From: Fistulifera solaris
Lineage: Eukaryota
Direction: 5' to 3'
NCBI GenBank assembly: GCA_030295235.1
Contig: AP026138.1
Location: 682,001-746,000 of the forward strand
Length of the DNA: 64,000 nt
Part shown: positions 4,287 to 61,309 of the stretch, piece after piece
How the letters are laid out: every line of letters begins with the position of its first letter
How positions within the stretch are numbered: position 1 is the first letter of the stretch
Translations under genes and position numbers: made by a program
Notes under the pieces: model-generated
What the model saw: the letters and a program-made list of their open reading frames with translations, nothing else
Told to the model about the DNA's origin: nothing
Databases searched by the model: none

Positions 4287-4570
4287 GGTCAACATTAGGC
4301 GCACAACTTTGGCCTTGAAGAAAAGCGGATCGAAAAAGTCAAAATGCAACACCACTACCACTTGGTCGATGAATTAAGGGCTCACAAGGTGTCACAAGGT
4401 GAATAGATGACGCCGTTGTTGTTTAGCAATGCAAAAGAAAGAGCTAGCCTGCTTTTAGTAAATTATGGATGATAGTATTTTAGAATTACTTCTTTTATAA
4501 GGGTTTTTGTTGTCTTTTTTACTGATGCGATTGGTGGAATGAATCATTGCCATGTCAGTTTTGTCGTAGA

Positions 4571-5812
4571 TACAGAAAATCTGGGATGGTCCAGAAATTC
4601 TGGACCAGGTTTAATTTCATTCAAACAGAAAATCTGGGATGGTCCAGAAATTCTGGACCAGGTCTAATTTCATTCAAACAGAAAGTCTGGGCAGATCCAG
4701 AAATTCTGGAGCAGGCGTATTTTCATTCAAACAGAAAATCTGGGCTGGTCCAGAAATTCTGGACCAGGCGTATTTTCATTCAACCAGAAAGTCTGGGTGG
4801 TCCAGAAATTCTGGACCAACTGAATTTCATCGATACAGAAAATCTGGGGTTGTCCAGAAATTCTGGACCAGACGTATTCTCATTCAAACAAAAATCTGGG
4901 CTGGTCCAGAAATTCTGACCACGCGTATTTTCATTCATACAGAAAATCTGGGAAGATCCAGAAATTCTGGAGCAGGCGTATTTTCATTGATACAGAAAAT
5001 CTGGGCTGGTCCAGAAATTCTGGACCAGGCGTATTTTCATTCAAACAGAAAGTCTGGGCTGGTCCAGATATTCTGGACCAACTGAATTTCATTCATACAG
5101 AAAGTCTGGGCTGGTCCAGAAATTCTGGACCAACTGAATTTCATCGATACAGAAAATCTGGGCTGGTCCAGAAATTCTGGACCAACTGAATTTCATTGAT
5201 ACAGAAAATCTGGGCTGGTCCAGAAATTCTGGACCAACTGAATTTCATCGATACAAAAATCTGGGCCGGTCCAGATATTCTGGACCACGCGTATTTTCAT
5301 TCAAACAGAAAATCTGGGAAGATCCAGAAATTCTGGAGCAGGCGTATTTTCATTCATACAGAAAATCTGGTCTGGTCCAGAAATTCTGGACCAACTGAAT
5401 TTCATCGATAAAGAAAATCTGGTCTGGTCAAGAAATGCTGGACCAGGTGTATTTCATTCAAACAGAAAGTCTGGGCTGTTCCAGAAATTCTGGACCAACT
5501 GAATTTCATTCATACAGAAAATCTGGGCTGGTCCAGAAATTCTGGACCAGGCGTATTTTCATTCAAACAGAAATTCTGGGCTGGTCCAGAAATTTTGGAC
5601 CAACTGAATTTCATTGATACAGAAAATCTGGTGTTGTCCAGATATTGACCAGTTGTAATTTCATTTATACAGAAAATCCGGGGTGGTCCAGAATTTCTGG
5701 ACTACCACAGAATTTCTGCATCGTTAGAGATAACTTGTCCAGAATTTCTGGAACTTGCACTTTCATTCGTTATGATCACAACTCACAACACAGTTTCCAG
5801 AATTTCTGGAAT
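4571..5812. repeat. Tandem satellite of ~22 units of 52-53 bp with an internal 21-bp palindrome, plus isolated cores trailing to ~5812
   Basis: Consensus ACAGAAAATCTGGGCTGGTCCAGAAATTCTGGACCAGGCGTATTTTCATTCAA (unit starts at 4731 and 4784). TGGTCCAGAA-A-TTCTGGACCA is a perfect inverted repeat. Confidence 0.97.
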
Positions 5813-5947
5813 TTGCCTCTTTTCTCGCGACCATGGACGCGATACGCAGCGCATGAACACTTTATTATTTTTGACAAAAACAAAAGTTAACTATACATCT
5901 TGCTAACTGCTGAATCAAGTTGATCCCCCCAACAAGAACAAGAAAGA

Positions 5948-7557
5948 ATGGTATTTTTAGGACCACTCCGCAAAGGCACCAATACAACACCCAAATCCGA
6001 TCTGTCCGAACTCGCTCAATGGGTGCCCTTGCGTCTCACTCCTTCCGAACGCGCTCTATTGACGGTTCTGGAACAGACACTACATGTCTCGGAATATACG
6101 GATAACGTCGATATCGCGAGTCGAAGAGGTGCTGGCATCAAAACGCAACGCATCTTGGAAGGCATTCTAGAGGCTTGTCACATTGCGACGGGGTTAGTTG
6201 CCGCGAGTGGTCAAGAACCGTCCTTGGGAACGTCACTACAAGACAACAACATCAAAATCAAAAAGAAGAAGAAACACATTAAACTCAAAGCAAATCATAA
6301 AAAGCAAAAGAAAACATTGTCGGGTTCACGCGGCGACCCTTCCGAAAACGCCCTTTGGTTGCAAACCATGTTCGAAATTGGACGTCGTCATAAAGTATTG
6401 AATCCAGCTTCGATGCGTTCGACGTACGGCAAACTCATGTATTTGATGCAAGATTCCCAAAATGCGACCGTTTCCAAGTCCCTCGGCTTTTCTCTGTACA
6501 AGCCCTTACAATTGGTCGGACCGTATTTGCAACAACACGGCTGTGAAGATTTGTTGCACGATCCGCGGTTGGAATGTGCCGTTCAGTTCATTGCCGATCG
6601 GGATCCCGAAACGGGAGAAAAGTACGAACGCGAATACATTCAGACACTGGTACAAGGCAAACAACACGTGCTGGAGCAATTGGTCGAAGCCTATCAAGAC
6701 AAGATGCCAGCCGACGACCTTCGACGCGCCATTGAATCCTTGGCGGATGCCATGGCTTATATTGAAAGTAATGTAGCTCCCGTGCAGCGCATGTTAAAGT
6801 ATCTGGAAGACAATTTCGATCCCACCAGTCCGCAGAAAGCCTTTTCGCTCGCCTTGACCGCCAACTCACGCTATTCTGCCATTAACAACAACTACTCACG
6901 CTACGGCTTTTCGGCCTACTCCGGTGGTTCCCGCGAAGGACCCACTTTGACGCATTCGCACAGTGAACAATACATGTTCGTGTGGCAATCACTGCGATTG
7001 TGGTGTAAAGTCATGCGGAATATGCATCGTTTGTGGGTTTGTGCCGATGACGATTTGTTGTCGACGCGGACGTCGTATCATTTGTACAATACGGGACAGG
7101 GATTGCAGCGCGTCCAAAGTTGCCCGACGGTCCGACAGGTCATGTCGCAATTGTTGGCACAAACCCAACACGAAGCGAATGCCCCGTGGGTGGGTCTTTC
7201 GGTCATTCATTTGGGCGATCGGGATGTCCCCAATGCGTTGGTGTTCATTGACAAGTATACGCAGATACCGCGGTTCTTGTCACCGATGGTGCACTTTTGC
7301 AGAGTTTGTCGGACGATCACGACGAACGGATCGAAGCGTATATTCAGGACCAATTTGGATCGAAGGACCAATTGAAAATGCTGGTTTTGACGGATTATTT
7401 CAAACATGGGTTTGACGGCAGTGGCGATGATGGAGGTAGTTGCATTGATGGTCGTTTGACGAGTTCGTGGAATTGGACCAGTCGATTGACGAAAAAGTCG
7501 TATTATCATGCGTTTATGCTGTCGGGCTTTCAGGGCTTTGATGGCGATTTTCGGTAA
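5948..7557 (+). CDS. UPF0652/DUF2009 family protein; frameshift near 7290
   Basis: Motifs [77 protein letters not shown]; the second frame gives [22 protein letters not shown]...GFDGDF. Confidence 0.85.
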
Positions 7558-7728
7558 TGCAAACGTAATAGTGAAGAAGAATAGTCACGGCAAGCCATGA
7601 CTGGTGGTTGCGTCTTTGAATTAGTGTGATCAATGATAACGCTTGGTTTTTGATCGTGATCATCTGTGAAATTCTTGAAAAGGAAAGTTGTCTTAGACTA
7701 CCTATCTTCGGAGTTTTTTTTTGTGAGC

Positions 7729-8207
7729 TCAACTTATCCACGACTGTGCATCCAGTCATGAATCAATATTCATTCGAGCGACAATGCTGCCTACAATTCC
7801 TTCGTTCAGCAAGATTTCTTTAGCTCCAATTGTTGTTATTGTAATGAAATAGTCCTTAGTAGCGTTTGCTTTACACGTCATTACACTATATTATTTGACG
7901 TCGACAAGCCTTGCGAAACGATGTCTTATGTATTTACTATAGACCAAAGTGTTGTCCGTATTTCGCCAAAACTGCGCTTAAGTCTTTTGAGCGGCAATGC
8001 TGCCCACAATTCGTTCGCTTAGCAGTTTTCCCAAGTTCAAATTGTCGCCGTTGCAATGAAATAGAAATAGTCCTTAGCAGCGTTTGTATTACACGCCATT
8101 ATATTTCACTCAGAAAAGCCTTGCGAAACGTTATCTTCCGTGTTTACTATTGACCCAAAGTGTTACTTCAAGGAGACCGCGAACCGCGACTGCGTTTCAG
8201 TCATGAG
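7729..8207 (+). repeat. Dispersed repeat family A: dimer of ~220-230 bp monomers bounded by GACTG-N5/6-CAGTC palindromes
   Basis: Palindromic sites at ~7739-7760, ~7969-7984 (degenerate) and 8185-8206. Shared internal blocks GAGCGRCAATGCTGCCYACAATTC, TTAGYAGCGTTTG, AAGCCTTGCGAAACG, TTTACTAT..ACC.AAAGTGTT. Colinear with 17514-18000. Confidence 0.9.
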
Positions 8208-8698
8208 TAGTCATGAATGAATAATGAATAATATCATCCATCATCCATCATCCTTCATCCATCATCACCTCACTAATAACAATGTCATCATTTTCTTCGG
8301 TTTGCTTAGACTAGACCTAGCATCCTCTATTTCGCAAACATTTGCAATGCACGTCTCGATTGTTGACGCCTGGTCGACGTTTAATGACGTCGAAAATCAG
8401 TGCAGAGTTGCTGTGTGACTTCCACTTTCGCCGTCACCACGAATAGCAGCTTGAATCTTAGACGCTGTCAAACTTCGAGTACACCGTCGCTGCTTCGTGA
8501 GGTAATAATGGCGCAAAATGCTGCGAGCTCCGCCGTTTTCCCATAAATTGTAAACAAACTGTTAAGATTTGTCGTTCGATTTACCAAAGGTACTGTTAGT
8601 GAACGGATGGTAAGTGCAACAGTTTTAGAATATATTATTATTTCTAATTCTTTCGTACACTTCCAGCATCCTTCACCTACTGATTCTCTCTGTTTACT

Positions 8699-9579
8699 TT
8701 ACTGCAAATCCAAAGTAGCATTGAGTTTCTCGGCAATGGCAATTTGCGTTTGTGTCAAATTGGAAAGATATGTGACCATTAACAAATCTTGCAAGGATTC
8801 GTGGAAGAGTTTGTCCATGGCATCGGGTCGCATCCGGGGTACGGTCGCCAGTGCATCGGCAATGTGTCGACCTTTTTCCGTATCGGGGGTGTTGTGCCGT
8901 CCACGACGGCATCGACGTAAGTGCAAGCCGTCTCCAGTAGTTCGTACAGTTGTTCCATGGAAATTTGCAACGGAGGCTTTTCGCGTTCGGTAGTTTCGTT
9001 GTTGTCATTCATACTTTTGATCATTTCACTGACACAAATTGCTTCCGGTTCATTACTTCGCAAAGATAACGGCAATTCATGAAACAAATTCCCCAGTGTT
9101 TCTCCTTGTACGAGAATCGGTGTCGAATGAAAGGCCCGCATCGTGACGGCATTTTCTTCCGTGAGACGACAATCCACCACCAAATGCACCGGATTCCCAT
9201 CTTCTGTTTCGGTCGAATAGAAATCATGAATCAACGAAGAAGTATCCGACAACAACGGCGACGACGAATACCATCCCACAATGACTTCTCGTTGTTGTTT
9301 ACTACTATTCTGTTGCAACAAGGCCCACAACGTCTTGTTGAAATCTTTGCCAATGGCGACTTCGTCGCCGCGTTCCGCGTGCGGCACCGCAAAGGCATTC
9401 GTGACTTCCACGAGAACACCGGAATCATCAAAACGACCCAAGAGCGTACCAATCACGCGAGCACTGCCGGCCGGTCGACGGCGGTGATGATCGAGAATGT
9501 GCAACAAGACCAACGGATGCACAAAGACCGTCGTCGTTGTAGTCGTGTCGAACAAGAGTGCGGGGGATTGTTGCGGCAT
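8699..9579 (-). CDS. EIF3F: Eukaryotic translation initiation factor 3 subunit F (MPN domain); frameshift near 8890
   Basis: VHPLVLLHILDHH, RVIGTLLG, VEVTNAFAVPH, EVIVGWYSS, HLVVD; the C-terminal frame gives LQDLLMVTYLSNLTQTQIAIAEKLN. Confidence 0.9.
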
Positions 9580-9922
9580 TTTGTTGTGTGAATGTGTGTT
9601 TGTGAATCAAAAAATTCTGTATTATTAGGCTTTGACTTGAGTGAGGAATGATATCGAGTGGAAAGACACGCAACGAAGCAAAATAATCCAGTGAGCACAA
9701 GAAGACCAAGGAGAACAATAACAACAACAAGGCGGGAGACGGACGAAAAAGGACGCCAAGCCGTTTGTGGTGCATTTACCGCCTTACTAAAATACAGACG
9801 AGCGGAAGGCCAGACCGATCACGATTCATTCACAAACGTGTGAGTCCCAATCTCGCTGACGAGCCCTAGAGAGTCACTTCGATCACATGCGTAATTTTTG
9901 ATTAAGATTATCTCTACTCTAT

Positions 9923-11572
9923 TCACCGAACCACAATCAAATCATCAATCTTCAAGATCATGGCCACCGTCTCGGTAGCCAATCGAATGGCGGACGTCGT
10001 CACCATCAAGGGTTGCACTACATTTTGGGCAAACATGTCTTCGACTTGTGCGGTCTTGACGTGAATACCCGCACCGACCACTCCCTTGGCCTGTTGCGCG
10101 CGAAGTTCGGTGACCGTCTGAATGGCATTTTGTCCGGCATTCTCGGCCAAGGTGTACGGAATCACCTCCAAAGCGTCAGCAAACGCCGTTAAACAATAGG
10201 CATCTTGGCCCGACAAGGTCCGGGCGTGTTCTCGCAAAGCCATGGCGGCTTGCGATTCCGCGGCACCTCCACCCGCCATGAGAGCCGGCTCTTGGACCAA
10301 ACATCGCACCACACACTGGGCATCGTGCAAAGACCGTGAGGCTTCGGCCAACACCAAATCGTTGCTTCCTCGTAGCAAGACCGTGACGGTACTGCCGGCA
10401 TTGGCAATTCCCGTAAATTGCACTACCGTATTGTTTCCTCCTTCCATGTACACATCTTCCACTAGTTCCGCGTGCCCCAATTTGTTGGCGTCCAATTGAT
10501 CGGGATGAGCGATGGGTTGACAATGGAGCGTGCGACAAATAAAATCCACATCACTCCGTTCAATGTCGGTCACGACCAAAATTCCCATCTTGGCCAAGAA
10601 ATGCAACGACAATTCGTTGTAGGCATCTCGTAAGATAGATTTTTGAATTAATAGCACATTGCATCCCGTCTTTTTGATTTGTTTGCACTGTTCCAACAGA
10701 TATTTTCGTTCTTCCCGTAGAATCCGATCCATGGCGGCGTAATCACTGACGACGACTTGATTGTCCATATCGGTTTTGGGTGCCGAAAGACAGTACTGAA
10801 TCAGTGCAATTTTCGCCTGTTCCATCCGTTTGGGTCCTCCCGATTTGGCCGATCCTTTGGTCAGTACAAGACCGCGAATGAGTTCCGTGTCATCGACGGT
10901 CCCGCCCACTTGTTCGACCAACCGAATGTCTCGTAAATCGACGGTGCGATTGTTGTTTGCAAGCAATGACAAAACGGAATCGACCGCAATGGGTGCCAAC
11001 AAATCGGTATTCTGCGAAACAACTTTACTACTGAGACACGTCTCGACCGCGTGCAAAAGTTGTTCCCGATTGTCCGCCACGACGAGACGTGCGACCTTTT
11101 TCAAAGAGTCACACGCCGTTTCGGCCGCTTGTAAAAAGTATTGGGCGACCGCCGATGGATGCAATCCCTTGCGCAACAAGACGGACGCACTGTCCAACAA
11201 GGCTCCGGCGAGTACCACGACGGTCGTCGTCCCATCTCCCGCTTGGACATCTTGGGCTTGCGACAATTCGACCAACATTTTGGCCGCCGGATGCAAGACA
11301 TTCATTTTGGACAAAATGGTCGCACCGTCGTTACTAATGAGGACGGATCCATCTTCGAGTTGCATCAATTTGTCCATGCCGCGGGGTCCCAAAGACGTGC
11401 GGATGGCATTGGCGAGGGCCTGTTTATAATATAGTTCAATGAAAAATGAGAAGAAATACCTGCATTCTTTATCCATCCTTCCATGTTTCGAACGCACCTT
11501 GGCCGCCACAATATTCGATGTCCGAACATCTTTGCCTTTCGAGCGTTCATTGTAAGTTTCTCCCGACACCAT
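9923..11572 (-). CDS. CCT4: T-complex protein 1 subunit delta; intron 11420-11497
   Basis: DVRTSNIVAAK|ALANAIRTSLGPRGMDK, ISNDGATIL, AGDGTTTVVV, SAPKTDMDNQVVVSDYAAMDRILREERKY, NVLLIQKSILRDA. The intron is a 78-nt GT..AG in-frame segment. Confidence 0.96.
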   Translation of the reverse strand: MVSGETYNERSKGKDVRTSNIVAAKVRSKHGRMDKECRYFFSFFIELYYKQALANAIRTSLGPRGMDKLMQLEDGSVLISNDGATILSKMNVLHPAAKMLVELSQAQDVQAGDGTTTVVVLAGALLDSASVLLRKGLHPSAVAQYFLQAAETACDSLKKVARLVVADNREQLLHAVETCLSSKVVSQNTDLLAPIAVDSVLSLLANNNRTVDLRDIRLVEQVGGTVDDTELIRGLVLTKGSAKSGGPKRMEQAKIALIQYCLSAPKTDMDNQVVVSDYAAMDRILREERKYLLEQCKQIKKTGCNVLLIQKSILRDAYNELSLHFLAKMGILVVTDIERSDVDFICRTLHCQPIAHPDQLDANKLGHAELVEDVYMEGGNNTVVQFTGIANAGSTVTVLLRGSNDLVLAEASRSLHDAQCVVRCLVQEPALMAGGGAAESQAAMALREHARTLSGQDAYCLTAFADALEVIPYTLAENAGQNAIQTVTELRAQQAKGVVGAGIHVKTAQVEDMFAQNVVQPLMVTTSAIRLATETVAMILKIDDLIVVR

Positions 11573-12105
11573 TTTGTTGTTGACTATTTATGTGTAAGCT
11601 ATTACTATGCTAACTTAGAAGGATCAAATGAAGGAGGAAGTAATAATGAGTGTCAATGACAAAGGCAATCTTTTTTTTTTTTTTTTTCCAACAGGATGCG
11701 CGGTGCAAAAAATAAGCCAAAAGCGAAAGGAGAGCGAGCGGTCGACGGAAGGTATTGTTATGTTGACGAAACGGTCGAGGTTACTGCGCACCTCCTTTCC
11801 CTTTTCCTACGTCATCCATCCAAGTTCGACGTCAGCATAGGCATGTCGGAAGTGACGCATGTACATTTTGATTCACAGTCATTCAGCCATTCTTGGCATG
11901 TTCGCCATTCTGCGACAAAGAGTAGAAAGCGTTCCCCGTTTGTTTCGCTTTGAGGATCGATTTTGCGCGCATCATCCTCCATCGCTTTTTTTTTTTTTTT
12001 CGCTCCTCTTTGCGTCATTTTACCCCGAGCTCGTCGTCCTCATTAAAGACTCTCGCAGTTCTTCTCTTTCTTCTTCTTTATTAACTATTATTATCTATCA
12101 AAACA

Positions 12106-13250
12106 ATGACAACTACGGGTGCCGTTCTACTCGCTCCTTCTCCGGCGGAAGGAGTCAAGTATGATCTCATGTATTATCTCAAGGGGGCGGCCGCCGGAGG
12201 TATCTGTTGTTCCATTACGCACGGTGCTTTGACGCCGGTCGATGTCGTCAAGACGCGTGTGCAACTCGATCCTGTGAAAGTACGTACTGTAGTGTGATGA
12301 CATGTATTTGTGAGGGATATGCTGGGCTTGTTTGTTGCGTCTTCGAGTTGCACCCCGACACACCTTCTCTTTCTCTTCCGATGAATCTCTCATCTCTTTT
12401 CAACTTCTTCTCTTCTCATTCATTCCGTTCCTTTACACTTCACACTCTACACTCTTTGCAGTACAACACCGGATTGGTCGGAGGATTCCGCACCGTCATT
12501 GCCGAAGAAGGTGTGGCCGCACTCGCGACGGGTCTCGGTGCTACCGCCGTCGGTTACTTTATTCAGGGATGGTTCAAATTCGGTGGAGTCGAGTACTTCA
12601 AGATCAAAGCCGCTACTTCCCTCGGAGAACAAAAGGCCTGGGAAAACAAGACCGCCATTTACATTGGAGCCGCGGCCGGAGCTGAAACCATTGCCGATAT
12701 CTTCCTCTGTCCGCTCGAAGCCGTCCGTATTCGATCCGTCTCGGACCCCGAATTCTGTACCGGACTATTGGATGGATTCCAAAAAATGGCCGCCACGGAA
12801 GGCATCGGCGGTTTCTACGCCGGTCTCGCTCCCATTTTGGCCAAGCAAGTCCCGTACACGTGCGCCAAGTTCGTCGTACAAGGCTCCGTCGCCGACAGCA
12901 TGTACGCGGGCATGGGCAAAACACCGGCCGAAGTCAGCAGCACCACCGCCTTGGGTGTTTCGCTACTGTCGGGTGTCATTGCCGGTGTCGCGTCCGCGGT
13001 CATTTCCCATCCGGCCGATACGTTGCTCAGTAAAGTCAACAAGAAGGGAGCCGGTGGCGATGGACCCATGATGACGCGATTGATGAACATTGCCCGCGAA
13101 ATTGGTTTTGTCAAGTTGTTGACGGTCGGGTTGGCGCCCCGTTGTGTCATGATTGGTACGCTCACGGCCGGACAGTTTGGTATCTTTGATACCGTCATGA
13201 ATGCGTTGGGGGCCAGCAAGTTCCATTTCCATAATCCCGAACAGCATTAA
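12106..13250 (+). CDS. Mitochondrial phosphate carrier (SLC25A3/MIR1 type); intron 12280-12461
   Basis: GGICCSITHGALTPVDVVKTRVQ, GYFIQGWFKFGGVEYFK, CPLEAVRIR, KQVPYT, SHPADTLLSKVN; three mitochondrial carrier repeats. Confidence 0.93.
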
Positions 13251-13340
13251 ATAATAGTAATAGTATAGTGCTGTCATCGATTGAAAGTCATCTTATCAGA
13301 ACAATGGATTGTAACTAAAGTTCTAAATTCTATTGTGTTT

Positions 13341-15551
13341 CTACCAATCGCTGGAACTGCCTCCGTTGCGGGCTCCGATTCTCGATAAACGCACTTCGTC
13401 ACCGGAAACCGGATCGTACTGTTTCCACGAAACCGTACGATGGCGTGTCATGTAATGGAGCGGCAAAGGCACCGGTTCGGTATTTTCTTGCGAGGAGGAT
13501 GCCAAGCTCTCGGAAGGCGGTGGCCACAGATACAGAATTTCGGCTTTTTTCAAACAACTGTTTTCCTGGAATGCCAATTCCGGAGAACTCGGTCGACCAA
13601 TGCGGTGTTCACGCATCATCTGAGCCTCCAGACGCTCCAAATCATCTGTCGGTAAGCGTCCCTTGAACACAGCAACTTCGGCAATCGCACCGTCACCACC
13701 ACGTTCCATGTGTTGTCCACAACACAACGAAATTCCAAAACAATGATCGGAGCCCAGCGTTAAACCATCCAACATCGGCCGGCCATTCCGGTGTTCCGCA
13801 AAGTGGTGATGCTCGACATCTTCTTGCATCCCATCGACGCGCAATTCGGTCCGATTATCATCCACAATGGCGGTATAACAGTGCCACGATCCGGGTGAAA
13901 ATCTCCCACGATGTATTCTGCGTCGGGTGTAATTCTGGTCGTCGTCATCGTACTCGTCAAGCTTATTTCCAACATTGCGATAAATACACCGGCATCGATT
14001 CATCCGGTTGGGACCCTTCGGATCGTTGTCACAACCTTCGTCCTCTTCGCTGCTGCCATCACCATAACTTCGTCCACTGTGCTCGATCGCCACCGAAGCG
14101 TCCTCGGATGCATCGTCTCTCACGGACAGCCGCGCCGACGCTTCGTCTTCGGCTTGAGAGCCATTGTCGTATATGGCGTGCTCATCGTCAAGCGATTCAC
14201 GATCCTCCTCCCGAATCCAGTCTTCCGTTGCAATACAAAGAGCACTTCGTTCGACAATTTCGGTCAGTTCATCTTCGGGATACATGTGTCCTAGCTCGAA
14301 ACGGTGCCGCAGTCCCGATAGAAAACAACCGTCTTCTGTAGCAATGGCGACGCAAATGATGGTGACCGGTTCGGAGATGGGGCCGCAAGCGAAGAGTGGT
14401 GTAATCATACACACCGCATGGTATTTGGGAGCGTTGAGAAACTGAACGCAACGTTTTCCGGATTTTCGGGCTACTTCATCCACCGATTCGTCTACTATTT
14501 GTGTCAATTGATTCGTGCTGGCGCTTGTTATAACACGCGGAAGAACTTCACGCTGCAATTCTCGACGATGAAGCTCCTTTCGGATCAGGTAATCTTGAAG
14601 CTCCTGCAACCGAATCTCAGTTGTTTCCTCGTCGTCGTCATCATTTTCACTTTCACTCATGTGAGAGTTGATGATCTTGTTCACATCAATCGGTTTTCTA
14701 CCATCAACAACGATATCTTCATCCATGCAGAGACAATAACTCTCGGGACGGGCAACTGTAGCCCCTCGAACGGCAAATGTTGTTTGATGCCGCTCCAAGT
14801 TCTCTACAGCGAAATGACCAGGTATTGACGCTTCCGTGAAATGTATCGATGTCGATGACGGACTTATTGACAGTTGAGCCGCCGCATTGAGCAAAGTGGA
14901 TACAAAACTGGATCGATAACCGAAATGACGCAAGACTTGCATGGGTTGCTGGTAGCCGGTCCACTCCACAATTGTGCTAACGCTATTCATATCGTCAGGA
15001 GTTATGGAGTGACTGCTAGGAGTCAGAGCACTAGTCTTTTTCAGTTTCCCTCTTCTTGAATCTTCATCATCGTCATCATCATCCGTTTCATCTATATTTT
15101 CTTCACCATTTGGTGCGAAACGTCCCTGAGACTGTATCATTTTTTGAATCGGTCGTGTATTGTTTGCCAGAAGCATAGCCTTATGAATTTGTTGCTGTAT
15201 AATTTCTAATTCCTCTTCTTTCGATAGAGTCATTGCCAAACGTGTCTCTTTGATTCCCTCGGAACGAAACCAAGCGGCACAAAAGGTCTCATTGCCTCTC
15301 GGAACGCGCGATTCCTTTCGTCCATTTTTTCTTATTCGCCCGTTGCAGATATCTCCCTCTAAGATACAGCGTAGCATGGACGGAAGGAGTAAAAGCTGAT
15401 TCGTTTGGTCGCTCACTGCTTGTTCTAACAGCACTTGATGCAGAGCATTTCTCCAGCCGACACTGACATTGGAAAAATTCGCCACATCGCTATTAGAGAC
15501 GTCTCCCTGTGAAACAGCCCATTGCAAGAACACGTGCTCCGCGGTGCTCAT
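13341..15551 (-). CDS. Hypothetical protein; possible F-box-like N-terminus and ConA/LamG-like C-terminal domain
   Basis: Uninterrupted 777-codon ORF with likely ATG at 15551. The C-terminal WHCYTAIVD..LRVDG..LTLGSDH..GAIAEVAVFKGRL resembles a LamG-type beta sandwich. Confidence 0.7.
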   Translation of the reverse strand: MSTAEHVFLQWAVSQGDVSNSDVANFSNVSVGWRNALHQVLLEQAVSDQTNQLLLLPSMLRCILEGDICNGRIRKNGRKESRVPRGNETFCAAWFRSEGIKETRLAMTLSKEEELEIIQQQIHKAMLLANNTRPIQKMIQSQGRFAPNGEENIDETDDDDDDEDSRRGKLKKTSALTPSSHSITPDDMNSVSTIVEWTGYQQPMQVLRHFGYRSSFVSTLLNAAAQLSISPSSTSIHFTEASIPGHFAVENLERHQTTFAVRGATVARPESYCLCMDEDIVVDGRKPIDVNKIINSHMSESENDDDDEETTEIRLQELQDYLIRKELHRRELQREVLPRVITSASTNQLTQIVDESVDEVARKSGKRCVQFLNAPKYHAVCMITPLFACGPISEPVTIICVAIATEDGCFLSGLRHRFELGHMYPEDELTEIVERSALCIATEDWIREEDRESLDDEHAIYDNGSQAEDEASARLSVRDDASEDASVAIEHSGRSYGDGSSEEDEGCDNDPKGPNRMNRCRCIYRNVGNKLDEYDDDDQNYTRRRIHRGRFSPGSWHCYTAIVDDNRTELRVDGMQEDVEHHHFAEHRNGRPMLDGLTLGSDHCFGISLCCGQHMERGGDGAIAEVAVFKGRLPTDDLERLEAQMMREHRIGRPSSPELAFQENSCLKKAEILYLWPPPSESLASSSQENTEPVPLPLHYMTRHRTVSWKQYDPVSGDEVRLSRIGARNGGSSSDW

Positions 15552-16056
15552 TGTGTTGCCTCTTTGTTCGATGGGATAGACGCAATGCATCCTTTTGATC
15601 TTGGGAATCGACAAGCCAACAATGAAGGAAAAGAAAGCAACAAGAAAAACAACGATTGTGACGAAAAACAACAAAAAATGGAACGTGCGGTGCTCCGGAG
15701 ACGATCGCAGGACGAACTCTTGAAGGGAAGCGCGTTTCGAGGATAGTAAGTTGTATACCGGTAAGTCTCGTTAAGTAGCCACTATCGTTGTTAGTGTTGG
15801 TTTATGGTGTTAACGACTTAATCAAATTGCAGTCCCGGAGCTTATGGCACGAGCAATAAGAATGGGCACTTTGGATGGGCCTACACATGTAGATTTTCAA
15901 CGTGGCGCGATTTCTATGATGAAACTAGTGGTGTTATTATTTCTGTGCGGGGAGAGACTTTAAGCACGATCACATGCACAAGAGAACAACGCTGTTTTAA
16001 AAAAACTTACTATGCTATAGCCGATGCCGATGCGCGATGCGTCTCGGCCAAACCTG

Positions 16057-17223
16057 TCAAAGACGATGATCCGCAACGAAGCGGAAAGGTTCTGATGGCA
16101 CCTCGAATCGAACCGTGCTGACATGGTGTTCGTTGAAGTCATCGTTGGAACTTGTTAAATGTTCTTCAAACGATAGATAACCGTTACGGCCGTGAATGTT
16201 GATTGGTTGTATAGTCAATACGATCTTTACGAATTGCCAAGGCTGCTTCGCGACGACTGTTACTTGTCGTCCACTGACTTGATATCTTCCCCACACGGCT
16301 GCCGCATCTTCCGTGTAACCCAAATTCACTCTCCGTAACCGCGGGAACATGTCATGCGGAGCCGTTGTAGTCAAAGCATAAATAACGCGCCCGTCTTCTT
16401 GAAAATACAAATAGCGATAGTAAATACTTTCGAGAATGGCTCCATGTGGGATCTAGAAATCACCATCAAGCTGCCTGTGAGATCATTTTCAATTCAGTCA
16501 ATCTGCTCATCCACTATGTCTTACCTCAGTCCACATGTCTCGTTGAATCTTTTTGATTTGTTTATACTTAATCACGTACACTCCACCTCCGGCACGGACT
16601 CGTGGTCGCTTTTCGAGCATCGTACGATACGAATTTCCAAAGCGCGAGACGTGCAGTGTGCGTTTCTTGCTTTGTTGAAGATACAAACGTTCGCACAATC
16701 TCCGATAGGCGGCTTCGGTCCGGGTAAACGATTTCCAATGCGGACTGACTAATGCCAGTGTAGCATAAGTATCCACTGGTAGGAAATCAAAGACCCGATG
16801 CAATAAATCATCCGGAAGTATCAGTATGCGTCCACCTACTTGGAGTAATTGATCCGTCGGTAACGAGTCTTGAGCCGCCAGTCGTTCCGATTCTATCTTC
16901 TCATCTAATTCCTCATGATCCGAATCTTCTTCTTCGTTTTTGGCTGCTTCAACTTTGCGTTGCTCTTCTTCTACCGTCAATGGATGAGAATCGTCTGGTT
17001 GAAGGGGGTATGCTAAGGTGTTGGAATACGGTTTGCTGTCGGAAGAATCTCCCACGGCGCGTTGCATCGTCATATATTCTTCAAATTCGCCGATTGTTTT
17101 GTAGCCATACTTGAACGCCAATTCCTTGCGCTCATTTCTTGACAGCATGTGCCAAATCGGCCACGTTAGCTCCCATTCATTGTCCCAAATTTCAACGGAA
17201 ATAGGGGCACTGTCGGAGCTCAT
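16057..17223 (-). CDS. F-box protein, FBXO9-like; intron 16453-16524
   Basis: F-box LPDDLLHRVFDFLPVDTYATLALVSPHWK; RPRVRAGGGVYV; spliced exon 2 IPHGAILESIYYRYLYFQEDGRVIY...EPFRFV. Confidence 0.8.
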
Positions 17224-17513
17224 CTTCTGCTCTCAATTCTTCGCAGTTTCGCTATCCACAGATTTCGCGCAACAAAACTCCTTTCAATCGAGAATTTAAA
17301 GGGTTATCGGCAGAGGTAACTGAGTTTCACAGCAGCAGAGGTAATGTAATTCGATAGAATAGAAAAAGAACCGCCGACGGAATTTTTTCGAATGAATGAA
17401 TCATCATCACACGACAACGCGCGACGTAACAGTCAGCATTTCCGTCTGCTTTACAATACGAACAACTGCGTCTACTATACCAGGTAAGGTTATCGTAAAA
17501 ATTGTCGAATGAA

Positions 17514-18000
17514 TCAACTTATCCACGGCTGCACTTCAGTCACGAATAAATATTCTTTCGAGCGACAATTCTGCCCACAATTCATTCGTTCAGCAACATC
17601 TCTTCGATTCCATTCCTTTGTAGTTGTTGCAATGGAATAGGCTACCGGTACCAGGTATAGCAGTGTTTGAATTACACGTCATTATTTTTATTACGTCAAT
17701 GGGCCTTGCGAAAATTTGTCTTTCGTATTTCCTATGGACCCAAGTGTTGTCCGTTTTTCGCCACGACTGCACTTCAGTCATGAATCAATTTTCTTCGAGC
17801 GACAATGCTGCCTACATTTCGTTCTTTAAGAAAAATGTCTGAGCTCCGTTTGTCGTTGTCGCATTGAAATACGATATAGCAGTGTTTTTATAAAGAGTCG
17901 TTATATTTCACGTCGAAGAGCCTTGCGAACATTAACTTCCGTATTTACTATGACCCAAAGTGTTGGTTCTATGAGACCGCGACTGCATTTCAGTCACGAG
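17514..18000 (+). repeat. Dispersed repeat family A: dimer (periods 238 and 216 bp) with three palindromic sites
   Basis: CACGGCTG-CACTT-CAGTCACG 17524-17544, CACGACTG-CACTT-CAGTCATG 17762-17782, CGCGACTG-CATTT-CAGTCACG 17978-17998. Confidence 0.92.
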
Positions 18001-18083
18001 ACCACTTCGGTTAGACTACCTTGAGTTAGGTTTTGAACAACTAAAAATGCATTTGTATTCAATAAATCAAAGACTTTCGTTTA

Positions 18084-21000
18084 TTATAGCTCCTCACGCA
18101 CCGCATCGGTCGCTGCTTGTATAGATTCGCACGCTGCGCCCGCACACGCTTCGAAGACATCCAAGCTATCCATCCCATTTCCCTCTGTGATGTTCAAGGT
18201 TGCATTCCGCTCCATTTCGAGCATTAAATCCCATTGATCGCTATTACCCATAAAGGCATGCATGATGAATCCGATGATCGCAAACGTCTTCAGTAGACTC
18301 CAAACGTCCTTCATGGATGTCTCGGCGAAACCAGCAACAAGAATGTGTCTGCAGAAAAAAAATTTCATGAGGCGGTCCAGAAGAAACGTTGCAACCAAAT
18401 CCATCGCCAGAATTGTAAGAATAAAATTACGAAAGCCCTCATCTGGGAACGGAACCAACTGGAAATAACGGTTCAAACCAGGAACCGATTCCGAGGCAAA
18501 CATGAACGTTAAAACAAAAGTGGCTGTGAGACTCCATAAAAGCGGTCGGTTCTCGGTGACACCTGTCATGAACGGGCGGCCTTGTAAATTCACGAAAAAT
18601 ACCGTGACTTGCTGAACGCTGCTTACGAGGAATACGACAGTGTTTAAGATGCCGGGTTTGAAAGTTCCATCAAGTTCGGCATCGTAATCAGGTGGCAGTG
18701 CGTCTTTGCGGTGGAGACCGCAGCATAGAGAGTGCCAAGGTGAACAGCGAATTGAGCGAGTAGACTACAGAACAGCGCTGGGTGGAAAATTGAAGTCAGA
18801 GGGCGAACGCTCGACAGTTTGTCAAGGGGCTTTGATCGTGACACCGACATAAAGGAAACAGATCCCAATAGACCCATCGCAGTCATCTGTGTGTCACCGT
18901 ATTTCACTCCATCGAGATACAATGCGGAAAGAGAATATGAGCTGATAAGGCATTGTAGTGCCATGATTTGGTACTGATATTTTCACGTCAGAGAAGTTAG
19001 ATATTTGAAGTAACCGTGAACAGTTTGACAGCAAAGTTCGACTTACCATCTGAATGCTAGAAACAAGGGTACAACGACCCTGTCGAACAATATCGACGCA
19101 ACTCTGTATACTTGGCATCTTACTTGTAAATGGTGCAGCCATAGAAGCGTCTCCCAGTTTGACAACAGGAGTTTCTCCGGCGTCAAGCTCTTCGAATTGT
19201 GCTGCCAACGAAGCAGCCGAACCCTCAACGCCGCCAAGCTGAGCAGCTTTCTTTTGGCCTCCTCCCTTTCAGCTGCCATAAACTCTTTCAATGCCTTGAA
19301 ACTCGCGAACGACTCCCCCTTGCGCTGCCAGTTCTTCTGCCCTTTCCTGCATTCGTCTCTGTTTCTCCATCATTACCCTTCGTTGCTCGGCTTTCTTTTC
19401 AGCCTGCGTCATATTCTTCTTATCCTTCTCATTCTTGGCGTCGTGTCTCTTCACAGCGATCTCACGAGCTTTGATTTGGTAAAGCTGTACGAGGTCCTCT
19501 TTCTCTTTGAGTTCGGGATACTTGTCGGGATCGACACCAATGGATCTAATTTTCATCTTCAAGACACGCGTTGGCAGGGATCTTATCTGTTCCAGATGCT
19601 CCTGGCTCATGATTGCGGTCACATTACTTGTCTCCTTTGTATTTTCTGTCTCCACGCCATTCTCTTTTTCAACATTCATATTCCCGAACCCCGACAGCAG
19701 CGCTACGCCGACATCAGCCTGTTTCAATGCACCGACATCGTTTGCACCATCACCGCACATCAAACATAACGCTCCTACTCCATGCAAACATTCAATGACT
19801 TGCTCCTTTTCATCGGGTGCCATTCGAGCAAACACCTTGATGAATTGAAGCACTTTCTTGGTCCCGCTATCTTGTTCAAATGCAGTTGCAAGACATTTTC
19901 CAGTTGTAGCCAAATCGTACTTCTTTGATAAATTTGGGATCTCATCCGAAACGAAATCGGCCACTTTGCTTCCGTCATTGTAGCTGCGCCAGAGAAGTTT
20001 CTCTTCGCCTGTTTTTTCGAGGAATGCAATTGGTTTGTACAATTTCTGTGCCTTTTTTCTTCTCTTTTCGTTTCTTGGAAGGAATAGAACCATTCCGCTT
20101 TGACTCCAGAAAAGCACGAAGTTCTTCATTTTCTTCTTCTATGTCTTCCTTCTCGGTGTTTCCAATCGGTTCGCAGATGTTAACTTCCTTGGCGACGTGG
20201 ATCGCCGTAAGAAGCGCGTCTCCGGTCACCATCGCGACGCTCATTCCACCTTCTTTCAAATGTTGCAGAACGCGCGCGGTATCTTTCCTCACTTTACAGG
20301 TAAATGCAATGAAACCCGCGAAAACAAGCTGAGATTCACAAACAGCTCTGCTGTCAATTGCCTTTTAACAGAAGCCTTAGAGCTAAGCTCCTTGAAGGCC
20401 AAGGCAATTAATCGGAACCCTTGTTTTGATAAATATTGAGCTTTTGCGTCGTAGCCGTCGGGCTTTGATGAAAGCAGTTGACCTATAGCTTCGGGTGAGC
20501 CTTTTGCAACGGCGTACGTCAGACCAGCATTTGTGTCAACTACGCAACTCATTCGCTGCAGTTTCGAGCTAAAGTGATGCCTTGATAGAATTTCCACTTC
20601 TGTAACTTTATTGTTGTCGCCCAGCACGAACGGCTTCCCCGCAGGCTTTTTCTTTGTTGCATCCTTTGGAACAGATTTGCCCGACATCGACGATACATGC
20701 CATCTCATGGATGCGATTGCAGCACTTTCAAGCGGATCGCCCTGTGTCTCATCGTCAACGACAACAAGCGTGTGGCAGCCTGCTAGAACAAACCCAGCCT
20801 CACTTGTAACTTGGGTCATCGGTTTCAATAAATCATCTTCTTCAGCTGAGTCAGGTAGCTTTAGCTTGTCGGGTTCGCACACTCCCACAGCGACAAGTTC
20901 ATCGGTGGTCAATGTGCCTGTTTTATCAAAAAGACATGCGTCCAGCTTACCAGCAACTGGCACCTTGTATGGTTCAGTACAAAAGATGTGCATCTTCATA

Positions 21001-22876
21001 AGCGTCATAAGACTGTTGTTGACGGCCATTGCCATTTGCATAGGTAGCTCCGGGCGGATAACGTTAGTCACGATCATGATGCAGTGGAGAAGTAACTCAT
21101 ACTTGCTTCGATTCTCATTCTTTGCCCCGTGGTAGAGAACGTATCCCGAACTAATAACCGCAAAGAAGCACAGAAAAAGTAAAAGAAGACCGGTCTCATA
21201 TTCATGACCTTTCACTTTTTCTTGTGATCCTTCAATCATCCGGACCAACTTTCCTTGAGCAGAAGCAAAACCAGTACGAAGGACGAAGCAGACACAACCA
21301 CCGTCTGGAGGTAGCGGAACACCAGAAAAGGACGTACTGCTGTCGTTGTGTTGAATGTAATCTACACCGCCCTTGCATTGAAGCATTTTGGTACCAGCAA
21401 AGGCGACGTTCATCTTATGATTGCCTTTCATACTGAGGGCTTCATTCGGCAACTCAGCGAGACCTTCTTTCATTTGCGGCACGGATTCGCCTGTCAAGCT
21501 GGCTTCATTGACAACAGTCGAACCTCGCAACAAGAGCAAGTCAGCTGGTACGACGTCCCCACCGTCGTCAGTGTCCCTTTGTTCACTTTGCGAGTCAAAC
21601 TCACAATATCACCGGGTAACAACTTGGTCGTATCTGTAATCGACCATGCACCAGCGCGATAGACGTAAATGTGTCGGCTTGGATTGCCCATTCCTCGCAA
21701 AGCCTGCATACTCTTGATACGCTGAAAGACAACGGTACCTTCGAACATGAGGACAATAAACAGAGAAAAGAATGAATAGATCAAGTAGTCATCGATCGCC
21801 CACAGCAACACACAAAAAATTTGGAAAACGGAGAATGGATTCAAAAGCTGCTTTTTGTACAGTTCAAGGAAGGAAGGCGATTTCACATTAAACAGATTGG
21901 GGCCGTAACGTATTTGATTGGCGGCCACACGTTCGGTCGAGTTCAAACCCTGGTAGGACTGTAGCTGCGACAGCAGCAAGTCCGTTCTGCAGCGAACTTT
22001 CGTCCACATATCGTTCTCGAAAACATATCTTCTACGATGGTACTCAAAAGTCATTCCCAGTGTCGGATAGTATTCCAGTTCCACCAGTACGTGATGGCCT
22101 TTGGCTGGACAAATTCGGGCGTGTGTCGGCAAATGAGAAGGGACCTGGTAAATTCGACGGTCCTGAATGACTTCTTTAGATGTCTCGCTGCTCTGAATTT
22201 CCTCCTCTTCGGGTAAAGCCATCATTTCGGCGGGAATTTCTACCACTGTTGCATCGACCTCCTGAAAATTGACCCAGACGTTAAAGCCGACACTCCAATG
22301 TTGCATCAAAAGCAAGAGTGCATGAAGCGTCGCTAAAATTCCAAGAAATAAGCTAGGCCAGAATGATGCTGCGTACTTGTTTGGCACCCGCATGCTTTTC
22401 GGCAAGGCATCTAAAACCGACTGTTCTTTGTCGCGTTTCTTTTCGGCCGCCAATTCTTCGATATCCATATCCATCCAATCCATCCACCCGATTTTCTTAA
22501 TACGTCTGTTGGGGTCATCCAAATCGTGAAAGGAATGCTCAAACTGTGCTCGCAATTTCGTGGCACCTTCCATGACTGATTTGGGTGCAAACGGCAATTG
22601 ATAAATAATGATGAGTTACACAGACATACTTCAAGACGCAGTTCTTGCAAACTCTCATTTTTCTTCCGTACCTTGAAAACCTTCTTGATCCGCCTTTTCC
22701 AAAAACTTGCGATAGGGTTCTCCTACAGTCGACAGAACGATCGTCGTTTGAATCACGTATAAAACAATAAAAATCACATTGTAGAGACGAATTTTGCTCT
22801 TGCCGCCGGCTGCAAGTTTCGCTTGATAGACTTGCACAAACCGGATCCCCTTGGAGTCCGTCGGGCATCCAACCAT
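18084..22876 (-). CDS. P5A-type ATPase (Spf1/ATP13A1-like); several introns and indel frameshifts
   Basis: [122 protein letters not shown]. Confidence 0.95.
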
Positions 22877-23242
22877 ATTCGCTGTCGTCTTTTCTTGTTG
22901 TAGAGCGTTTCGTTGTTACGAAAGCTAACTCAATGAGGAAGAACAAGATTATCAATCACTTAAGCGCATTTTTTTCTTCTTTTCTCCCACCTCCACATGG
23001 AGAAAACGTACGGCGGAATGACGACCTGTGACGACGGCGGCGGTTGTCGGACAAAGTACAGACGCGTCATATCGTTAACCTTAATGTATCTAATTGCGTC
23101 AAAACCCGAGTGCTTTTCTCAGATTTCTCGCATCAACGATGACAGAATCCCTCTTCTTTTGGTTATTTGATCCAAATATTAATACTTTGAATTGACGGCT
23201 ACAGGCTCTAGAGCTACATTATATAACAACACGACCCGATGC

Positions 23243-23334
23243 TTTACCTCGACAATCCTTGTGGATCCTTCTACAACTTGTACTGTGAGCCAATGTGTAT
23301 GCTACCTTTTCTCGTGACTGCGTTTAGTCATGAA
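23243..23334 (+). repeat. Degenerate 3' remnant of a family A monomer
   Basis: CCTCGACAATCCTTGTG resembles CGTCGACAAGCCTTGCG; TACTGTGAGCCAATGTGT resembles TACTATAGACCAAAGTGT; ends in TCGTGACTG-CGTT-TAGTCATGA. Confidence 0.6.
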
Positions 23335-23634
23335 TCGACTTCGGCTTGGTCCGCATGCGCATGGAGCATCGTCGTGCGTCATGAGCCACCTTTAATATGC
23401 TAGAAAGTAATCAAAACTCTGTAACAACTCCTAATAAATTAGTTTTTGATATCATGAGGGTGTTCTTGTTCTACGCAATTGTTATTATGATGTAATGCGA
23501 CAGGGGAATGATTGCAGATAAAGAAACTAACAGCGTTAGCACTACAAAAAACGCTCAGAAATGATCATCAACACTTGCAATAATATATACTGAGAATTAC
23601 ATCTACCACTGTTCCTCGTCGGAACTTATGAGAC

Positions 23635-43727: not shown

Positions 43728-44157
43728 TTTCCAGTCATGATGAATATATAACGGCTTTTTGGAGGCAAAATATCTCTACACTTGCGTTCGCTCCATTAGC
43801 TCGGTAAGCTATGATTGTTGCCATAACAACGCATTCATGCTTAGAAGCATTTGCAATAGCACATAGGGTATGCTTTGAAAAACGCTGGCTTTCGTTTTCA
43901 TCACAGACACGAACGAATAATCTATGCATCTTTTCCCAAGACTGCATTTCAGTCATGAGTCATGGTCTTTTTTAGAAAGACATCTATAAATCTCCGTTCG
44001 TTCTGCTATCTTTAGGAGCTATTATTACTTTATGTTTAGCAGCACTTGCAATACGCACATCGATTGTTTACATCGGACATGCTAATAAACGTTGTCTTGC
44101 GTACCCAAGTTAGAAATAGAATGTACACCGTCTACCACGACTCTATTCCAATCACGC
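43728..44157 (+). repeat. Diverged family A dimer
   Basis: Sites CAGTCATGA (~43732), CAAGACTG-CATTT-CAGTCATGA (43937-43958) and CACGACTC-TATTC-CAATCACG (44136-44156); internal TTAGCAGCACTTGCAATAC and AAACGTTGTCTTGCGTA blocks. Confidence 0.7.
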
Positions 44158-44189
44158 GTTACGAACCCACAACCCATAACCTTGAAGGA

Positions 44190-51445: not shown

Positions 51446-51763
51446 GGTTGTTTTTTTGTTTTTAATCGACTAGAATGGAAAACAAACGTCGAAAGGAGCG
51501 CAAATGAGAACGATGCCGACAGAATTTGAGATGACATATTAAACACTACGGATATTTCTCTAATGAATAATCAATGAACAAAACAATGATTCGTACCTTC
51601 CAACGCAACAAAGAGGATTGTTTTCAAACTCGAGGGCCAGCTTGCAACACAATGAAAGGGCAAAAGCAAGGCGGATGCAAAAGTTAGTAGGGACGGTAAA
51701 CGGTAAAAGGGTGTGTTATCCTGAACCGTATTGTACTTCGTACACCCGCCTGACAAAAGAATC

Positions 51764-51963
51764 TATTATAGACCAAAGTGTTACTTACATTATCCACGAC
51801 TACAGTTCAGTCACGCGTAATGAATCAGATTTCTTCAGCATTTATTAAGCTCCATTTGTCGTTGCTGAAATGAAGTATCTTTTAGCAGCATTTCTATTAC
51901 ACTTCAATATAAATTCACGTCAAAGAGCCATGCAAAACGTTTCTGCTGCGTATTTTACTATAA
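51764..51963 (+). repeat. Family A copy: monomer tail, palindrome, and internally deleted monomer
   Basis: TATTATAGACCAAAGTGTT, TATCCACGACTA-CAGTT-CAGTCACG (51791-51815), AGCTCCATTTGTCGTTG, TTAGCAGCATTT, TTCACGTCAAAGAGCCATGCAAAACG, GTATTTTACTAT. Confidence 0.85.
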
Positions 51964-59929: not shown

Positions 59930-60702
59930 AAGTTAGACTTTATGTAAGCAATGAGAAATGGACGACCATAAAGAATAAAAGGCGGAATGAAATCATTCAA
60001 AATGTTTTTCTCGAGATGGAAATCCAGTCGGACGACCCGTAAACCAACACTTTGATCGATAGTAAATTTTTAATGCACGAAGCTTCACGAGTAAAGAATG
60101 AGGTGTGTTTCGAAGAAGTGACTCACCTTTATTATAAAAAGTACGGAGTATCAAGTAGGTTTGTAAGCAATGAAACGACCATAAAGAAATGGGGGAGACG
60201 CGTAATAAAATCATACGGAGTATAAATAATTGTCTTTTCGTGACTGAAATCCAGTCGGACCACCCTTGAACTTACACTGTGATCGATAGTGGAATTTCAG
60301 TTTACGCTTGGGAAAGCTTCACGGGTGAATAATGAGATGTATTTCGGAGAAGCAGCTCACCATTATTATTAGACTCTATCAATTGAACGACCGTGGGCAG
60401 ATAAGGGAAACGGGATGAAAATCCACCGATTGTTTTTTTTGAGATAGAAATCCAGTCGGACCACCCGTAAACCAACACTATGATCTATAGTAGAATTGGA
60501 ATGCATATTCGGGAGCCTTAATGCTCTGGAAAAGCTCCTCTACCCAGTTTTAAGAAAAGAATAGTTTCGGTGAAAGATCTTGGGAAACGTCTCTTTTCAA
60601 ATCGATGTAGTCTACATTCAATCGATTTTTACGCTTACACCTTGTTAAAAGTTCCCACAATATTATTGCTCGGGTTACACCACGACTGACAGTCAGTCTT
60701 GA
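59930..60702 (-). repeat. Family A-related array of about 3.5 monomers in reverse orientation
   Basis: GAAATCCAGTCGGAC at 60019, 60246 and 60447, and CACGACTG-ACAGT-CAGTC at 60681 (periods 227, 201, ~240). The reverse complement ATTTACTATCGATCAAAGTGTTGGTT matches ATTTACTATGACCCAAAGTGTTGGTT at 17943. Confidence 0.8.
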
Positions 60703-61309
60703 GTCCTGAACAACACGGCCAAAAATGTCGCCATTTCGTCGAATGAAACGACAAAAATAAATTTCGCGGTCCTTGTTTGAAACAAGTTATTCCTGTTTAC
60801 GTTGTCGAAAAAGAGCCGTTTGTGTCATTTTCGGTTTTTACTGTTAGAGCCAAGGATCAACGACGATGGCCTCCTAAGAAGGCCCTCGTAACGGTAAAAA
60901 AAAGGAGAGGCATAAAACGCACATCGGAAAGTCTTTTTGTTTCAACTGACAGGACCGCCGAGATTTGGCCAGGTTAGTTTTGCTTTCGTAGAACGAGTAC
61001 ACTCGAAATCCTGTTTGTAACGAAAATAGTGAGACGCTCTCTATAAGTCTTGGCTTATCCGTTACACAGTTGTTCATAATTATGAGACGAAGATCAACGA
61101 AACCTACTCGTAATTTTCACATGGATGGAATCTTTGCAATACGACACGGAACTTTTATGCCGACGATACGGCACAATTTGAACATCGATTAAATCTAAAA
61201 CAGACAGGTAGAAGTGCGAAACATCTATTCCGAGTTGCAAGATCAGTATAAGATAGACTTTATCATTCATTCCAGCTCTTGAAACATACTTCTTTTGCCC
61301 ATAAACATC

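Follow-up and report, generated by a model that had tools for sequence, protein, structure and literature searches.

How do short satellite-like arrays originate, and how do they jump between genes? This open question is raised by a 64,000-nucleotide stretch of the diatom Fistulifera solaris (C23:682001-746000, contig AP026138.1; hereafter the window). An initial annotation had noticed six loci here in which monomers of ~200-240 bp are joined by a palindrome. All six exist, although several of their layouts had to be corrected. They belong to a real, abundant, and unclassified mobile repeat superfamily in which one short core, in an estimated thousands of copies, marks where arrays start, stop, and break and where the bodies between cores change. 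If a site-specific enzyme acts on this core, the diatom would be the source of a new recombination or nicking tool with landing sites built in; if there is no such enzyme, the family is a well-resolved case of satellite turnover.

The assembly comprises 51.7 Mb in 62 contigs. The window has a collinear partner on contig C24 (80-92% identity), so that every locus can be compared with a homeolog. The allopolyploid genome thereby supplies before-and-after pairs, and the question can be put to the test on a defined 65-bp substrate. About 1 Mb of DNA was examined closely: 294 kb of C23, 300 kb of C24, 70 kb of C28 and C29, and 113 short loci, which partly overlap. The long stretches were C23:552001-846000 and C24:540001-840000. 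Literature searches on diatom Cryptons, on the repeats of this species, and on tandem palindromic non-autonomous repeats of diatoms returned no account of the core family; Repbase, Dfam, and supplements were outside their scope. Published elements are compared below with extracts of the papers cited.

A directional core of about 65 bp

The palindrome GACTG-N5-CAGTC, with at most one mismatch, occurs 10 times in the window, compared to 1.87 expected, and none of 100 shuffled sequences reached 10. In the whole genome, exact matches to CAYGACTG-N5-CAGTCRYG number 905 forward and 915 reverse, with many places counted on both strands, whereas the reversed control has none. A core profile located 57 cores at 25 loci in the C23 stretch and 31 cores at 23 loci in the C24 stretch; on the reversed sequence it had no match at E<0.05. 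The exact pattern fits just 9 of these profile-found cores, and for this reason several thousand cores genome-wide is a fair extrapolation. Scanned metagenomes contained no match to the long pattern and 16 single matches to the short one, and viral contigs contained 3 single matches. Only one of these 19 (L179) reaches into the box region, and none is an array; we take them to be chance matches.

The repeated junction that had been equated with the palindrome exists, but it is wider: the conserved unit is a directional core of ~65 bp with an ACTAT box, an AAAGTGT box, and the palindrome. An exact ACTAT is located 20-47 bp upstream of 194 of 259 sites, and 29-31 bp upstream in 176 of these 194. 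In 91 monomers from 35 loci, picked by body sequence alone and from one subfamily, the identity to the consensus is 0.87-0.90 in the arms, 0.83-0.85 in the body, and 0.94-0.96 in the ACTAT box, the best conserved part of the core. The palindrome is therefore better kept than the bodies, as had been stated, strongly so across subfamilies but only modestly within one. The asymmetric spacer tracks array orientation in the 30 loci checked, also as first described, and spacers differ between neighbours.

Arrays, bodies, and ends

Arrays are built as (core-body)n-core, with n bodies and n+1 cores. The expected n/n+1 rule, solo sites, and non-random array ends are all supported: solo cores make up 49 of the 136 loci with both ends in sequence, and array ends gather at the core. 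Both of the best arrays in the window are of subfamily A, which has a unit of 220 bp. Subfamily B (unit 234 bp) has its core in common with A; its body cannot be aligned to that of A, and its palindrome is disrupted by a longer spacer and a split right arm. Among 20 unselected bodies from C23 and C24, seven group with A, four with B, and nine stand alone at z<5, for 11 unalignable groups in all. The bodies may derive from captured host DNA, or they may all go back to a single, very ancient monomer.

Despite these unalignable bodies, neighbouring cores are 195-260 bp apart in 37 of 40 spacings, which include three back-to-back core pairs (241, 247, and 257 bp), one of these pairs being the homeolog of another. 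A distance of ~195-260 bp is about one nucleosome plus linker, and the proposal of a non-autonomous family with nucleosome-scale spacing is supported; the literature search found no figure for the diatom nucleosome repeat length.

In 27 of 38 subfamily A arrays, the 3' end is 19-40 bp from where the last site starts, 0-17 bp beyond the palindrome. Their 5' ends (n=38) coincide with the site edge in 16 and lie 29-40 bp upstream in 12. Of 26 subfamily B arrays, 12 have their 5' end at 29-42 bp and 8 have their 3' end at the site, the remaining 3' ends being ragged; some of the long end distances reflect decayed sites that were missed. An extra head is located ~69 bp upstream of many A arrays. 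Of its 23 exact copies, 21 are followed by same-strand cores, one by inverted cores, and one by none; the bases before the head vary. In agreement with the initial annotation, neither a target-site duplication (TSD) nor poly(A) was found above chance in the 136 loci, and the same holds for terminal inverted repeats (TIRs), CTRR ends, and primer-binding starts. CTRR within 30 nt after the last site occurs in 31 of 136 loci, which is below chance, and TGG follows the last site in one of 136. Inverted repeats at array ends did not exceed permutation.

Doubled right-arm 7-mers are found after 16 of 32 last sites and 3 of 16 solo sites, in contrast to 2 of 46 internal and 1 of 35 first sites. On the two long stretches, exact 7-bp tandem duplications occur at 0.41 per kb versus 0.053 expected (~8-fold), whereas 5-bp duplications are at chance level. 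The 7-bp duplications are most frequent at the right arm, with bins of 22 and 20 versus 1-7, and part of this peak is inherited. A self-targeting DDE element with a 7-bp stagger, similar to Dada or KolobokP, could produce this pattern: it would enter the AGTCATG of a resident core, the duplicated target would rebuild the site, and excision would leave a doubled 7-mer. Dada elements, as described in PMC3706591, also lack TIRs and insert in tandem at one site, and their 6-7-bp stagger matches the doubled 7-mers. However, most doubled words may descend from one founder, no outer TSD or TIR is present, and few bodies follow a lone right arm (5 of 95 in subfamily A). The core family also differs from Dada in having no transposase, no matching subterminal repeats, and no small-RNA gene target (an Rfam search of 17300-18100 gave no match at E<=5). 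We regard a DDE element as the least probable of the explanations considered here.

Homeologs and breaks at the palindrome

The homeologous interval contains a same-strand core for 24 of the 57 C23 cores and none for the other 33. Of 17 common sites, 6 lose homology no more than 10 bp from the palindrome, versus 5 of 258 control 23-mers drawn from the same spacer regions; this test needs flank homology on at least one side, and 7 pairs without it were dropped. The controls were taken from aligned blocks, and breaks may be underrepresented among them for that reason. A solo core at C23:772504 is found opposite a core-body-core at C24:749942-750171, and the same holds for C23:572330; at both, the empty target keeps the crossover word (homeologs are 10-20% diverged). 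Between two common cores the bodies differ in C23:638289-638734 and C24:627657-627835. Short direct repeats by both breakpoints of four filled gaps were dismissed as too weak, because homeologous gaps are not clean empty sites.

These comparisons count in favor of a Crypton-type tyrosine recombinase, for which the palindrome would be the crossover site and the upstream boxes accessory, with circles of ~220 bp entering resident cores. The array layout with its many solo loci, the back-to-back cores, and a reciprocal first/last site pattern in an array on C40 point the same way. Cryptons, including CryptonS of stramenopiles and CryptonF-1_cRei, resemble the core family in the absence of TIR and TSD, in rearrangements at short sites, and in their gene-proximal intergenic positions (extracts of PMC3212892 and PMC9977147). 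However, the breaks at the palindrome fit site-specific recombination but would fit repair at the best-conserved 23 bp as well. The recombinase-site layout is not supported as claimed at first: such sites have 11-13-bp inverted arms around 6-8 bp (per the extract of PMC3212892), whereas the A arms are 8-9 bp around 5 bp, spacers vary between neighbours, and subfamily B, the most recently spread, did so with its spacer lengthened and its right arm split. The filled/empty comparison did yield solo-versus-filled homeologs and breaks at the site, but the array at window 7729-8207 is absent from a homeologous spacer without any site (a gap of 1012 bp versus 112 bp), an outcome named in advance as a refuting one. 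The empty homeologs of C23:646.8k and 779.6k lack the site as well. Crypton direct repeats are 4-6 bp and present in the empty target according to the same extracts, in contrast to the long repeat of the core family, which is often lacking in empty homeologs and has no linked recombinase.

In uniform arrays, read by eye, the first core is often unlike the internal cores, and the switch occurs anywhere from about -40 to +9; no fixed crossover base was found among the cores listed, which also counts against clean site-specific integration. The carried 3' flank described below is a further difficulty. A genome search with the tyrosine recombinase profile PF00589 returned no match, nor did searches with PF12012 and PF16787, neither of which detected a positive control. 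No tyrosine-recombinase motif was found in the open reading frames (ORFs) of the ~1 Mb examined; these helper-gene searches are weak for distant, intron-bearing genes. On balance we consider a Crypton-type origin unlikely, and the main rival to the reading preferred below.

Spread between chromosomes

Subfamily B copies, at most 88% alike over long matches, are located on 16 contigs (40 of 100 candidates scored). Partner contigs were inferred for 11 of the 16 from paired gene-family matches or common flanks, and none of these 11 partners had a match; that is, B is on one member only of 11 chromosome pairs, a one-sided result that may be biased by a query taken from C23. Four B arrays are present on the C23 stretch and none on the C24 stretch. 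Since B is on only one member of these chromosome pairs, it moved between chromosomes after the parental genomes split. Subfamily A sequences are 96-98% alike within the C40 array and at most 82% alike elsewhere (40 of 220 candidates scored), and A seems to have no young dispersed copies among the candidates scored.

The B array at C23:606.5-607.0k matches locus L140 on C13 with 89% identity over 591 bp. The match takes in ~250 bp 3' of the array, which on C13 correspond to a host promoter and first codons; these ~250 bp are a copied 3' flank of the donor. Nested 3' tails of differing lengths are common to five subfamily B loci. Contigs of four read runs were placed on window 5800-24500; their monomer joints derive from other family members and so do not bear on whether circles form. 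The arrays are left uncovered by run X3, whose contigs show spliced joints, and this is no evidence about expression. Run X1 contains 91% of the words of window 15500-19500.

Uniform local arrays together with dispersed copies that are only 82-88% alike would also be expected of a dispersed satellite spread passively by host repair, through circles, template switching, and unequal exchange, with the core as a hotspot of breakage or protein binding and no dedicated transposase. Mobile satellites without the hallmarks of transposable elements are known (MSAT-11, in the extract of PMC9977147), and the core arrays have no terminus of any known element. In addition, 25 of 136 core loci have satellites with 34-bp and 52-bp units no more than 300 bp away, as opposed to 57 of 2000 random samples. 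Passive spread leaves unexplained the sharp 5' starts at a fixed box, the conservation of the core across unalignable bodies, and the constant spacing, which extends to inverted neighbours. We judge it rather improbable.

Proposed mechanism

The reading we prefer, tentatively and at somewhat less than an even chance, is that of a selfish, non-autonomous copy-out repeat superfamily with a functional ~65-bp core and a rolling-circle-like (HUH-type) polarity. We favor it because a fixed 5' start, a 3' hairpin, multimers, a carried flank, and the lack of a TSD match rolling-circle elements. Rolling-circle amplification had been offered as an option in the initial annotation, and it suits the polarity and the carried 3' flank better than recombinase integration does. 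In the extracts consulted, the hairpin of Helraiser acts as a terminator (PMC5876387), and Replitrons have fuzzy ends, with parental downstream DNA at the right end (PMC10288648).

Under rolling-circle-like copying, a protein encoded elsewhere would bind the core. Copying would begin near the ACTAT box and usually halt at the palindrome, similar to the 5' start and 3' hairpin stop of HUH-type elements; read-through of the hairpin would give multimers and carry downstream DNA along. Two cores 200-260 bp apart would turn the DNA between them into a movable unit. Once landed, arrays would grow and homogenise locally through unequal exchange, and they would shed units at the palindrome, leaving solo cores. 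The data show the anatomy, the clustered ends, the spread to many chromosomes, the single 3' transduction, and the breaks at the palindrome; we infer the class of the enzyme, the start and stop roles, and the capture of host DNA as bodies. The subfamily A form of the ACTAT box, TACTATRGAC, resembles the pMV158 nick word TACTACG/AC, which we treat as a weak lead toward a rolling-circle enzyme.

Several observations weigh against this reading. There are no near-identical dispersed copies (the best are 82% for A and 88% for B over long matches), hence no demonstration of present-day activity, and there is just one clear transduction. TC/CTRR termini and subterminal inverted repeats are absent. 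The likeness to the nick word extends over only 10 bases and is weaker in subfamily B. Shuffled sequences fold as well as the palindrome hairpin (z -0.6 to -1.5); for this reason, and because there was no Rfam match, a structured-RNA reading was dropped. Instead of captured DNA, the bodies could represent one monomer that diverged over a very long time. A genome search with PF01719 returned no match, detected one of 14 controls, and was blind to introns and distant forms. No convincing HUH motif was found in 1348 ORFs of the ~1 Mb examined; the profile searches of the genome did not include Helitron families. Finally, the extract of PMC10288648 gives Replitrons as undetected in diatoms.

A more novel proposal is that the ~65-bp core is a minimal self-targeting module: a site-specific enzyme would place copies about one nucleosome from existing ones in either orientation, making any ~150 bp of host DNA between them a cassette. 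Such cassettes could undergo excision, exchange, and multimerisation and could travel to other chromosomes. Eukaryotes would then have a cassette system of their own, from which new satellite families would arise directly. We think it improbable.

Comparison with known elements

The core family is filed under no known family, because it fails a defining test of each. Cg_HINE elements are non-autonomous Helentrons with satellite-like arrays in Crassostrea gigas (extract of PMC7492417). Both they and the core family have short dispersed arrays near genes, monomers of nucleosome scale, no TSD, unrelated monomers in related frames, and conserved segments in dissimilar monomers. In the core family, however, no subterminal inverted repeat, 5' microsatellite, or TT target was found, and the conserved part is at every junction, whereas in Cg_HINE it only flanks the array. 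More generally, the core arrays have the hairpin near the 3' end and the missing TSD of Helitrons and Helentrons, although the hairpin is no stronger than shuffles; they have neither 5' TC with 3' CTRR nor subterminal inverted repeats with a TT target.

Replitrons (extract of PMC10288648) are similar in copy-and-paste movement, a terminal direct repeat, a right-end hairpin, and a parental 3' flank, the last seen in core arrays as one clear case plus the nested tails. They differ in a direct repeat of 6 bp versus ~65 bp; in the core family multimers are the rule and no Rep gene was found. KolobokP, with its (LTDR-INT)n-LTDR structure (extract of PMC9587614), and tandem-array TRIMs likewise combine n internal parts with n+1 direct repeats and have solo forms; for KolobokP multimers the extract proposes cut-induced unequal exchange. 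Their repeats are 450/660 bp, in contrast to 65 bp in the core family, which lacks TIR, TSD, primer-binding site, and coding region. Hallmarks of tandem-array TRIMs are an outer TSD and a primer-binding site. In core arrays, TSD and TIR are at permutation level. Overall, the core family acts most like arrays borne by HINE elements and Replitron-type copying, and is built like KolobokP/TRIM multimers.

Genomic context

None of the 57 cores is located inside an ORF conserved between the homeologs, although such ORFs cover 56% of the stretch; introns can blur this ORF-based test. Orientation is unrelated to genes (13 loci are directed toward a gene start, 12 are not), and a core-promoter reading was dropped on this account. 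Strict exclusion from conserved ORFs would also be expected of a host cis-element, such as a chromatin barrier or replication origin, at which a bound protein phases one nucleosome and duplication is secondary. The constant spacing, the fixed 30-bp distance from box to site, and the many old solo cores kept in both homeologs agree with such an element. However, 33 of the 57 C23 cores lack a homeologous core, and the burst of subfamily B is one-sided. We consider a host element very unlikely.

Loci of the window and neighbouring sequences

The site-monomer-site-monomer-site layout described initially holds for two plus-strand arrays of subfamily A. In the array at 17514..18000, the sites are at 17523, 17761, and 17977, and the bodies measure 238 and 216 bp from site to site. 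In the two-body array at 7729..8220, the sites are at 7738, 7966, and 8184; the layout is there, but the first spacer is 6 bp and the middle site is decayed. A duplicated right-arm word follows its last site. The array at 17514-18000 is also present in the homeolog, where a CCAGA-type satellite splits the second body, and it predates the split of the homeologs. A head motif of the CAGAATTTCCGTCTG type, which opens many subfamily A arrays, lies upstream at 17434..17452 (plus strand) and is common to the homeolog. The model core is at 17730..17783 on the plus strand, with an ACTAT-type box ~30 bp upstream, an AAGTGT box, and the palindrome CCACGACTG-CACTT-CAGTCATGA.

The supposed array at ~23243-23334 is instead a plus-strand solo core (23276..23339) with a 4-bp spacer, common to the homeolog. 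Two further plus-strand loci, previously given as 43728-44157 and 51764-51963, are also laid out differently. The old diverged array at 43728..44160 opens with a right arm only (43731), followed by a site at 43936 with a 7-bp duplication and a decayed site near 44136. At 51760..51963, a core with one subfamily A body has no closing site, and the locus is absent from the homeolog. The region 59930-60702, annotated as reversed, does contain three minus-strand cores 227 and 201 bp apart (59983..60500), with a body unalignable to subfamilies A and B, but also one plus-strand core (60666..60708, site 60680). This core is back to back with the three, 241 bp centre to centre, and common to the homeolog, with homology starting 14 bp upstream of its site.

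A further common word, of the TTGCAAYGCACGTCTC type, adjoins three arrays, at window 8328-8357, 52066-52095, and 59748-59777. A short inverted-repeat element with GGCAGAATTTTAACG arms is located at window 44183-44260; the GGCAGAATTTTAACG word also occurs after the solo core at C23:772518 and before the array in locus L129. Satellites of 52 bp and 34 bp, built on CCAGA-W-TCTGG palindromes, are found at window 4570-5702 and 52094-52351, the 34-bp array at 52094-52351 coming after the core and body of 51760..51963. Of 28 heads, 5 have units of the 34-bp CCAGA type upstream, and 6 of 19 tails have such units downstream; beyond these units, no shared outer terminus was found at heads or tails.

An 8-kb insertion that opens with an array (C23:661.7-669.8k) was considered as a helper and rejected, as it consists of a B array and a decayed Copia element. 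This Copia long terminal repeat element (L049 650-7450, C23:662.7-669.5k) begins ~30 bp past the last B-array site and is absent from the homeolog. At L037 1608-3173 (C24:661608-663173), a clean 1565-bp insertion with a flanking 7-bp direct repeat contains only a 147-aa ORF and had no match within the ~1 Mb examined; it is a candidate element with a 7-bp stagger.

Large tandem BTB_2 gene arrays are located on both homeologs at C32:90-152k and C33:84-126k. The BTB arrays on C28 and C29 contain cores and no recombinase. In L103-L104 (C28:140982-143550), two facing ORFs, which by eye resemble a Harbinger-type transposase and its partner protein, adjoin a BTB gene array. At C23:804858-805466, 608 bp with an apparent coding frame are cleanly missing from the homeolog.

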